From the sequence record PQ571293: a stretch of 44,223 nucleotides of DNA; one strand, written 5' to 3'. The stretch comes from Escherichia phage EM1. Below the pieces are notes generated by a model. The model did no database searches. It was not told the DNA's origin and saw only the letters and a list, made by a program, of their open reading frames with translations. Position numbers and translations under genes: made by a program. Shown piece after piece: positions 29,771 through 31,092 of this stretch (position 1 is the stretch's first letter; each line of letters starts with the position of its first letter).

Positions 29771-31092
29771 CAAATACAATAACAACACAAGCATCTCAAT
29801 CCCCGAGACTGGCTGTAGATGTTGTTGTGACGGGAGCCATATCGCATGGTTTTGTTCATACGCGAGGGTGGTCAACATTCGCTTACGGTCTGGTTTGTAC
29901 GTATAACGGCGGGGCCGGTTTATATCTTGTCGGGGATAACAATAACACACACTGGGACGGAATGTGGTCGCATAACACCGGGATAGGTGTATATGTGCAA
30001 AACTCCGCTGCCGTTTCATTTAGCGGAAGCTTCGAGAACAATGGTGAGCAGGGATGTTTGGTAGACGCCAATGCCGTAATCGCGTCCGGGTACGTTAATA
30101 CGGAATCTTCTGTAATAACTTTTACGGATGGATGTTATTTCGAGAGCAATGGTCAGAATGCCGCCGGAACATACCCGGAGCTACAATTTGGTGGTAACGG
30201 TGGTGGTACGGTACGTGACTGCTCTGTATCGGCAGCACACATAGGTGTGCCTTTATCCGGAATCGGTATCCAGTTCAATGGCTCCGCCAAGCGTGTGACT
30301 GTAGATTGTTCGGGTCTGTATCCGGTGAACACCCCTACGGCGTTCATTAGATATTCTGCGGCGTATACCAGTCTAGCCGTGGTAATTAACGCAGACCATA
30401 AATTCATTAACCTCGACGTGGCAGCTAACCGTATCCTGTCGCTCGGATTCGCAGATACAGACGGTATGCTAGCGGCATATGTTCTTGGTGGCGGTTCTCA
30501 GTCAGCTTCTGGTAAGGATAATATCCTGAAAACGGTAAGGCTTACGGATGCAAATAACACTGGAACCTACCTGGAGCGTATCTATCGCGGAGCGGAATTA
30601 ATATCCGAACGCGGAGTTAAACCGAACGTGCAGGTATGGAACAATGCTGCAAGTTCTAGTGGTTTTCACTCTTTTGCGGTTGGAGGCACTGAGGTGGTGC
30701 GTATAGCAGGAACTAGCCTACAACCGCGGGTTGATAACACCCTATCATTAGGCACAGCCTCGCTTAGATGGTCAACTGTGTACGCGTCTAACGGTACTAT
30801 AAACACTTCTGATGAAACGCTGAAGACACCGGTAATTACTGAAACAGCCCGTGAAGCGGTCGCCGCAGGTGCCATAAAATCGTCCATTTATCCCTACAAA
30901 TGGGTTGATGGTAGCGACGGGGATAAAGTTCACTTTGGGGTTGGCGCCCAGACGGTCGAGAGTATACTAAAGCGCAACGGTCTTAACCCTGAAAAATACG
31001 CATTTCTTTTTAAAGAGAAAGACGATAAAGGTAAACTGACTTACGGCATCCGGTACAACGAACTGATAATGTTTATCCTTAAGTATATATAA
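29764..31092 (+). CDS. tailspike with right-handed beta-helix-like repeats and C-terminal intramolecular chaperone (peptidase S74-like) domain
   Basis: Gly/Asn/Val-rich repeat region; C-terminal SDETLK motif (Ser...Lys spacing of S74 autocleavage sites) followed by about 100 aa. Confidence 0.65.
   Translation: MVTNTITTQASQSPRLAVDVVVTGAISHGFVHTRGWSTFAYGLVCTYNGGAGLYLVGDNNNTHWDGMWSHNTGIGVYVQNSAAVSFSGSFENNGEQGCLVDANAVIASGYVNTESSVITFTDGCYFESNGQNAAGTYPELQFGGNGGGTVRDCSVSAAHIGVPLSGIGIQFNGSAKRVTVDCSGLYPVNTPTAFIRYSAAYTSLAVVINADHKFINLDVAANRILSLGFADTDGMLAAYVLGGGSQSASGKDNILKTVRLTDANNTGTYLERIYRGAELISERGVKPNVQVWNNAASSSGFHSFAVGGTEVVRIAGTSLQPRVDNTLSLGTASLRWSTVYASNGTINTSDETLKTPVITETAREAVAAGAIKSSIYPYKWVDGSDGDKVHFGVGAQTVESILKRNGLNPEKYAFLFKEKDDKGKLTYGIRYNELIMFILKYI

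Follow-up and report, generated by a model that had tools for sequence, protein, structure and literature searches.

The chaperone domain of the phage K1F endosialidase endoNF (3gw6), the founding member of the Peptidase_S74 family, takes part in the trimerisation-dependent autocleavage of a tailspike. A related domain is found in MyRF, a eukaryotic membrane-bound transcription factor. When the K1F mechanism is transposed to pb1 of phage T5, Lys1269 activates Ser1264, and the Thr1263-Ser1264 bond is cut only after the trimer has folded correctly (PMC4690869, section 3.7). In the same scheme, Arg1250 of a neighbouring chain lies between Asp1239 and Thr1263, and this arrangement forms the oxyanion hole (PMC4690869). 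Folding of the endosialidase needs the K1F loop T977-H1026, which most other members of the family lack (PMC3742443). Phages of the Kagunavirus/Guernseyvirinae group generally depend on O-antigen or capsule (PMC11990801), and the spikes of the prototype K1-specific kagunaviruses, that of K1H included, are homologous to the K1F endosialidase (PMC10408124). A chaperone domain on a Kagunavirus spike has precedent. The subject of the present analysis is the single tailspike of Escherichia phage EM1 (sequence record PQ571293), encoded in a stretch of 44,223 nucleotides that is called the window below.

Homology, the full set of catalytic residues, the fold and the position within the protein all place the C-terminus of the EM1 spike among these domains. 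Taken as a whole, nt 30715-31089 are with high confidence best explained as the autocleavage site and the C-terminal intramolecular chaperone domain (CIMCD; Peptidase_S74 in MEROPS and Pfam) of this tailspike. The domain lies in an open reading frame (ORF) on the plus strand, 29764..31092, which was confirmed in the window, encodes 442 amino acids (aa) and is called ORF2 here; residues are numbered from its ATG. Residues 349-406 align with positions 1-57 of the 58 in the Pfam profile PF13884 (Peptidase_S74, "Chaperone of endosialidase"); the score, 24.3 bits (E=3.8e-5), exceeds the curated cut-off of 22. The closest full-length proteins, the unannotated metagenome sequences P0001 and P0002, are intact and give 26.6 and 31.3 bits. 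A phmmer search against all PDB sequences returned gp51 of Klebsiella phage Kp7 (7y5s, E=1.1e-13, aa 319-418) as the best match, followed by T5 pb1 (4uw8, E=1.5e-11, aa 318-422) and the K1F chaperone (E=3e-4). PHROG tail spike/fibre families likewise match here. Homologous C-termini are found in the tail fibre or spike genes of 394 phage records, and in EM1 the domain runs to the stop codon of the tailspike gene, the extreme C-terminal location typical of the family.

The first-pass annotation had proposed a self-cleaving domain of the S74 type from the peptide NTSDETLKTPV (aa 347-357; nt 30802-30834), in which a serine and a lysine stand five residues apart. These are the predicted nucleophile Ser349 (codon 30808-30810), 94 residues before the C-terminus, and the predicted general base Lys354 (codon 30823-30825). 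The pattern S-x4-K is common, occurring 251 times in a six-frame translation of the window, so the motif by itself was rejected as evidence, and the tests at the level of the domain are decisive. The longer patterns TSDxxxK and D-x10-R-x12-TS-x4-K occur once each in the window, both at the tailspike C-terminus. In the alignments Ser349 faces the alanine of the S-to-A mutants used for crystallisation (4uw8, 3gw6) and Lys354 faces their lysine, i.e. the dyad positions of T5 pb1 and K1F endoNF. Asp324, Arg335, Thr348, Ser349 and Lys354 are all present with the spacing 11/13/1/5, the same as that of D1239/R1250/T1263/S1264/K1269 in T5. Among 107 homologous C-termini, Thr348, Ser349, Asp350 and Lys354 are invariant (107/107), Asp324 is conserved in 105 and Arg335 in 103, while His390, Gly392 and Gln396 are nearly invariant; as the homologues were picked by similarity to the query, this conservation is supportive rather than independent. 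The segment aa 318-348 is conserved along with the chaperone domain. With the Pfam score above threshold and the residue-by-residue alignment, both the proposed domain and its dyad are borne out.

Structure prediction of the C-terminus, the check that had been suggested, led to the same result. The AlphaFold2 (AF2) model of ORF2 has a predicted local distance difference test (pLDDT) value of 89-96 for aa 355-442 and displays the characteristic chaperone-domain fold. Foldseek searches of the PDB with this model gave 4uw8 as top match (2.7e-6), then 3gw6 (4e-5), the GA-1 chaperone 3gud (7e-3) and the MyRF ICA structure 7dc3. The matches at E<=0.3 were intramolecular chaperone structures only (T5, K1F, GA-1 and MyRF). 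It might still be argued, from the abundance of S-x4-K, that the Ser/Lys motif is a coincidence and the C-terminus an unrelated or non-cleaving trimerisation tail. This we consider extremely improbable and have rejected, given E-values down to 1e-13 against solved chaperone domains, a Pfam score above the cut-off, five mechanistic residues that are all in register and conserved, and best fold matches that are themselves chaperones.

Some caveats go with the assignment of the CIMCD. The PF13884 score is just 2.3 bits over the cut-off. The monomer AF2 model is poor at aa 341-348, i.e. at the cleavage site. The Foldseek TM-scores are low (0.55 for 3gud and 0.49 for 7dc3, normalised to the target), which reflects normalisation over whole chains and the intertwined, trimeric nature of the domain. 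Read literally, the ORF that bears the chaperone also lacks a virion anchor, a point taken up below. Nothing among the results contradicts the assignment of the chaperone domain itself.

Trimerisation, cleavage and release would, by analogy with the K1F endosialidase and T5 pb1, begin with three nascent chains that join through the C-terminal domain. The domain would then nucleate the folding of the preceding trimeric β-structure and of the β-helix. Only in a correct trimer would Arg335 of a neighbouring chain come to lie between Asp324 and Thr348 and give the oxyanion hole, after which Lys354 would activate Ser349. The predicted cut falls between Thr348 and Ser349; it would free a C-terminal fragment of 94 aa (Table 1) and leave on the virion a mature spike whose length in the repaired frame is 593 aa (62 kDa). 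The first-pass annotation had placed the domain at 30780-31092. The start of that interval misses the reading frame by one base, the in-frame position being 30781. The conserved autocleavage module, to which Asp324 and Arg335 belong, begins upstream of the interval, near aa 318 (nt 30715).

When it comes to the described systems, T5 pb1 has the domain at the C-terminus, as here, with the five mechanistic residues identical, and the predicted cut in EM1 falls at the same Thr-Ser bond. The T5 domain comprises 133 aa and has long β-hairpin "tentacles", whereas that of EM1 has 94 aa and, in the model, a short hairpin (aa 415-429). The mature part of pb1, a "bullet" domain without enzymatic activity, sits on a long fibre, while that of EM1 is a β-helix tailspike. 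The K1F protein shares the dyad and the role, in EM1 a predicted one, in tailspike autocleavage, but its β-propeller (GH58) has no counterpart in EM1 and its loop T977-H1026 is absent. The type I tail fibre gp51 of Kp7 follows the same plan as the EM1 spike, a β-helix spike of the depolymerase type followed by a Peptidase_S74 module (PMC12737672). However, Kp7 is a T7-like podovirus with another anchor, and the two β-helices are alike at the fold level only (8-13% identity). A β-helix with an autocleaving C-terminal chaperone is also the plan of the phi29 and GA-1 neck appendage gp12 and the MyRF ICA (3gq7, 3suc, 3gud, 7dc3); 3gq7 matches the β-helix of the EM1 spike as well, though these proteins are distant in sequence. 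The EM1 spike has the anchor and the locus of Kagunavirus/Guernseyvirinae spikes such as those of vB_EcoS-22664BS2, GZMU_E2010 and BASEL Bas70-76, but differs from them in its receptor-binding part and in its frameshifted gene. The chaperone domain is a textbook one and adds nothing beyond what is known from K1F, T5, phi29/GA-1 and MyRF. The close homologues of the spike carry two variants of it, one of 94 aa and one of 113 aa with an insertion (P0003, P0008, P0009 and P0011), which indicates that the chaperone module itself is swapped between spikes.

Table 1. Features of the EM1 tailspike gene and its 3' flank (window coordinates; residues in ORF2 numbering).
Feature	Position	Strand	Basis or detail
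5' tailspike part: virion anchor (Kagunavirus/Jerseyvirus type) and first β-helix rungs	29030..29724	+	PHROG, colinearity, DNA
Frameshift site	29722..29727	+	CGT CA- CGT in the window; CAG/CAA (Gln) in relatives
Central receptor-binding region: right-handed parallel β-helix, then short β-rich stalk	29725..30714	+	ORF2 aa 1-317 and 13 codons upstream of ATG 29764
Autocleavage segment (aa 318-348), end of the mature spike	30715..30807	+	Aligned with T5 pb1 at identical spacing
Folding-sensor/oxyanion codon Asp324	30733-30735	+
Folding-sensor/oxyanion codon Arg335	30766-30768	+
Folding-sensor/oxyanion codon Thr348	30805-30807	+
Predicted released chaperone, Ser349-Ile442 (94 aa, 10.6 kDa)	30808..31089	+	Pfam, PDB matches, AF2, Foldseek
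Tailspike stop codon	31090-31092	+
GC-rich hairpin AAGGCCCCAAACGGGGCCTT	31097..31116	.	8 pairs, 6 of them G-C (terminator-like scan)

The identification of the protein as a tailspike is based on PHROG tail spike/fibre families, synteny and homologues. The window is a Kagunavirus-like (Guernseyvirinae) coliphage genome of about 44 kb, most of the first 25 kb of which is 88-91% identical to known E. coli phages. The spike gene is found directly downstream of the gene for a J-like tail protein and is convergent with a helicase gene, which is the Kagunavirus tailspike locus. Residues 1-114 of the 5' ORF (29030-29770) are recognised by two PHROG tail spike families, phrog_29731 (E=9e-45) and phrog_20900, and the first ~500 nt of the gene have 83-86% DNA identity to the 5' ends of Kagunavirus tailspike genes. 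Nucleotides 29030..29724 are colinear with aa 1-231 of P0001 and P0002, both of 687 aa. The first β-helix rungs carry a DWVTPDQF...DDTAAF cap, and this part, read as an ORF, runs to a stop at 29768-29770. Anchor and locus are thus those of a Kagunavirus tailspike gene, whereas the single intact ORF of such a gene was not found.

The reason is one base missing after 29724, which splits a 687-aa tailspike into the ORFs 29030-29770 (246 aa) and 29764-31092, coding downstream of the gap continuing in the -1 frame from 29725. ORF2 had been taken for the tailspike. It does belong to the tailspike, but it is the 3' two-thirds of a frameshifted gene of 2063 nt (29030-31092), overlapping the 5' ORF, and not a complete gene. 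Every close homologue is one continuous protein, 685-733 aa in length, spanning both ORFs, P0001 and P0002 being 96% and 89% identical to ORF2. The gene has 2064 nt in the two closest relatives, L001 and L002, and the missing base is the sole gap in the three-way DNA alignment. Insertion of one base restores an ORF of 687 aa, which aligns without gaps along P0001 (95.5% identity) and P0002 (91.3%), with no further stops or indels relative to the intact homologue. The methionine at 29764 lies inside a conserved β-helix rung (LDGNGMVTNT), several homologues have leucine in its place, and no strong Shine-Dalgarno sequence was found before this ATG, which overlaps the stop of the upstream ORF (ATGGTGA).

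A programmed -1 frameshift was considered and rejected. No slippery heptamer is present at the frameshift site, the change of frame corresponds to exactly one missing base in a Gln codon, and a slip further downstream would replace the conserved rung QRISIQGVT. A generally error-ridden assembly is likewise unsupported. When all 75 coding sequences (CDS) of the closest annotated relative, PV845598.1, were compared with the window by tblastn, 58 were matched (17 short CDS without a match were left out) and no other gene was split between frames, the sole matches in several frames being three HNH paralogues. The assembly therefore does not look generally error-prone. The simplest explanation of the missing base would be an error in the sequence or a mutation of very recent origin.

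If the missing base is a true mutation, the chaperone is real while the gene is broken, and the phage would be a defective or host-range-altered variant that makes a 246-aa anchor piece and at best an anchorless 442-aa piece from ATG 29764, i.e. no virion-attached tailspike. The single gap relative to both closest relatives, in a Gln codon and outside any long homopolymer, is consistent with this, as is the absence of other frame-split matches among the 58 CDS. We nevertheless find it unlikely. The two halves show no other damage and, once repaired, the protein is 95.5% identical to an intact homologue, so that the lesion, if real, must be very recent. The Guernseyvirinae need glycan receptors, which they reach through the spike (PMC11990801), and a null would thus be strongly counter-selected. 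A single-base miscall is moreover the commonest assembly error, and the character of Met 29764 and its surroundings speaks against initiation there. It is even less plausible, and in our judgement very doubtful, that the frameshift is both genuine and tolerated and the spike made in two pieces, the 246-aa anchor and a separately initiated 442-aa piece. The latter would trimerise and self-cleave by means of its own chaperone, and work either as a free soluble β-helix enzyme or, docked without a covalent bond, as a receptor-binding module.

The region between anchor and autocleavage segment was modelled twice with AF2. The first run, on a mixed alignment of 72 sequences, gave a poor β-helix (pLDDT 43-88). 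In the second run an intact, 96%-identical homologue was used together with an alignment of true homologues of the central domain only; this model is confident over aa 150-490 and forms a right-handed parallel β-helix. It matches CBA120 TSP1-4, the APK16 depolymerase, phi29 gp12, GVE2 ORF18, the AlgE4 epimerase, GH87, GH28 and several lyases. The earlier description of the region as rich in Gly and Asn is fair, as aa 1-320 contain 12.8% Gly and 7.8% Asn. The window protein stays below the cut-off for PF13229 (Beta_helix), with 11.4 bits where 25.9 are required, and has no match to PF12708, though the latter profile is above its cut-off in the distant homologues P0113, P0114, P0116 and P0117 (27-33% identical). 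For the central domain, NCBIfam gave no match and phmmer against the PDB found the C-terminal module only. At least 20 of the 22 family members share a cluster of polar residues, namely the Asp of LDGNG, His32, Arg34, Trp36, Asn60/61, Trp64, Glu91, Tyr125, Glu127 and Asn129. Its acidic members, Glu91, Glu127 and that Asp, may be candidates for a catalytic role.

An endosialidase (GH58) can be set aside. PF12219 matches over its last 32 positions only, at 19.7 bits against a cut-off of 25, and the match is to the end of the stalk beside the cleavage site; the central fold is a β-helix and not a β-propeller. The polar cluster and the fold fit an enzymatic spike without proving it. The mature β-helix most likely binds a surface polysaccharide, O-antigen or capsule, and probably also cuts it. 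The first-pass annotation had suggested a depolymerase with capsule or O-antigen as receptor, which is plausible in view of the β-helix fold and of the glycan dependence of this group of phages, while catalytic residues and substrate are not established. Alternatively, the spike may be a non-enzymatic adhesin whose β-helix merely binds a glycan or another receptor, with the chaperone assignment still correct. T5 pb1 has the same chaperone domain and no known enzymatic activity, no β-helix enzyme family reaches its Pfam cut-off in the window protein, and no catalytic residues can be assigned. This we regard as a minority possibility beside a polysaccharide-cutting spike.

The β-helix belongs to a rare family. 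Searches with blastn found no DNA match to nt 29500-31100 among 50,697 phage records and none to nt 29500-30800 among 5,426 E. coli genomes. For the family of the central β-helix (29764-30723), just 11 representatives (at 50% identity) with E<=0.001 turned up when 1.84 billion proteins were searched exhaustively. The family is found on at least three anchors, i.e. the Kagunavirus type, the TSP1/gp66 type (PF18668) and the P22 head-binding type (PF09008), which appears as the usual horizontal exchange of receptor-binding modules. Being both rare and combined with three virion anchors, the family may carry an uncharacterised glycan specificity. At the DNA level the spike gene is a mosaic with respect to L001 (3001-5064) and L002 (824-2887). 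With L002 it shares 96-100% identity at its 5' end and again close to the 3' end, against 73-87% in the middle. With L001 the first two thirds are 87-97% identical, and the stretch around gene positions 1350-1800 only 71-75%.

The correct annotation of the locus is one tailspike gene of 687 aa, 29030-31092, whose frameshift needs checking and resolving before the gene is annotated or expressed. The predicted end of the mature spike, Thr348 of ORF2, is residue 593 of the repaired protein. If the spike is to be expressed as a depolymerase or typing reagent, the chaperone should be kept in the construct, the missing base repaired, and a loss of about 10.6 kDa expected.

The hairpin AAGGCCCCAAACGGGGCCTT begins 5 nt past the tailspike stop, between the convergent genes, and probably ends the late operon as a bidirectional terminator. 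Beyond it, three paralogous ORFs for HNH homing endonucleases, each of 165 aa and all on the minus strand (32866-33363, 33859-34356 and 36912-37409), are scattered among the helicase and DNA polymerase genes; they are 35-42% identical to the two HNH genes of phage GZMU_E2010. On the plus strand, ORF 10040-11116 (358 aa) has counterparts to no more than aa 1-244 and 505-617 of a CDS of 619 aa in PV845598.1 (32395-34254), so that about 260 aa are either absent in the window or inserted in PV845598.1. Between the tape measure and distal tail genes, ORF 25091-25585 (plus strand, 164 aa) covers one third of the 459-aa CDS found at the same position in PV845598.1 (17912-19291).
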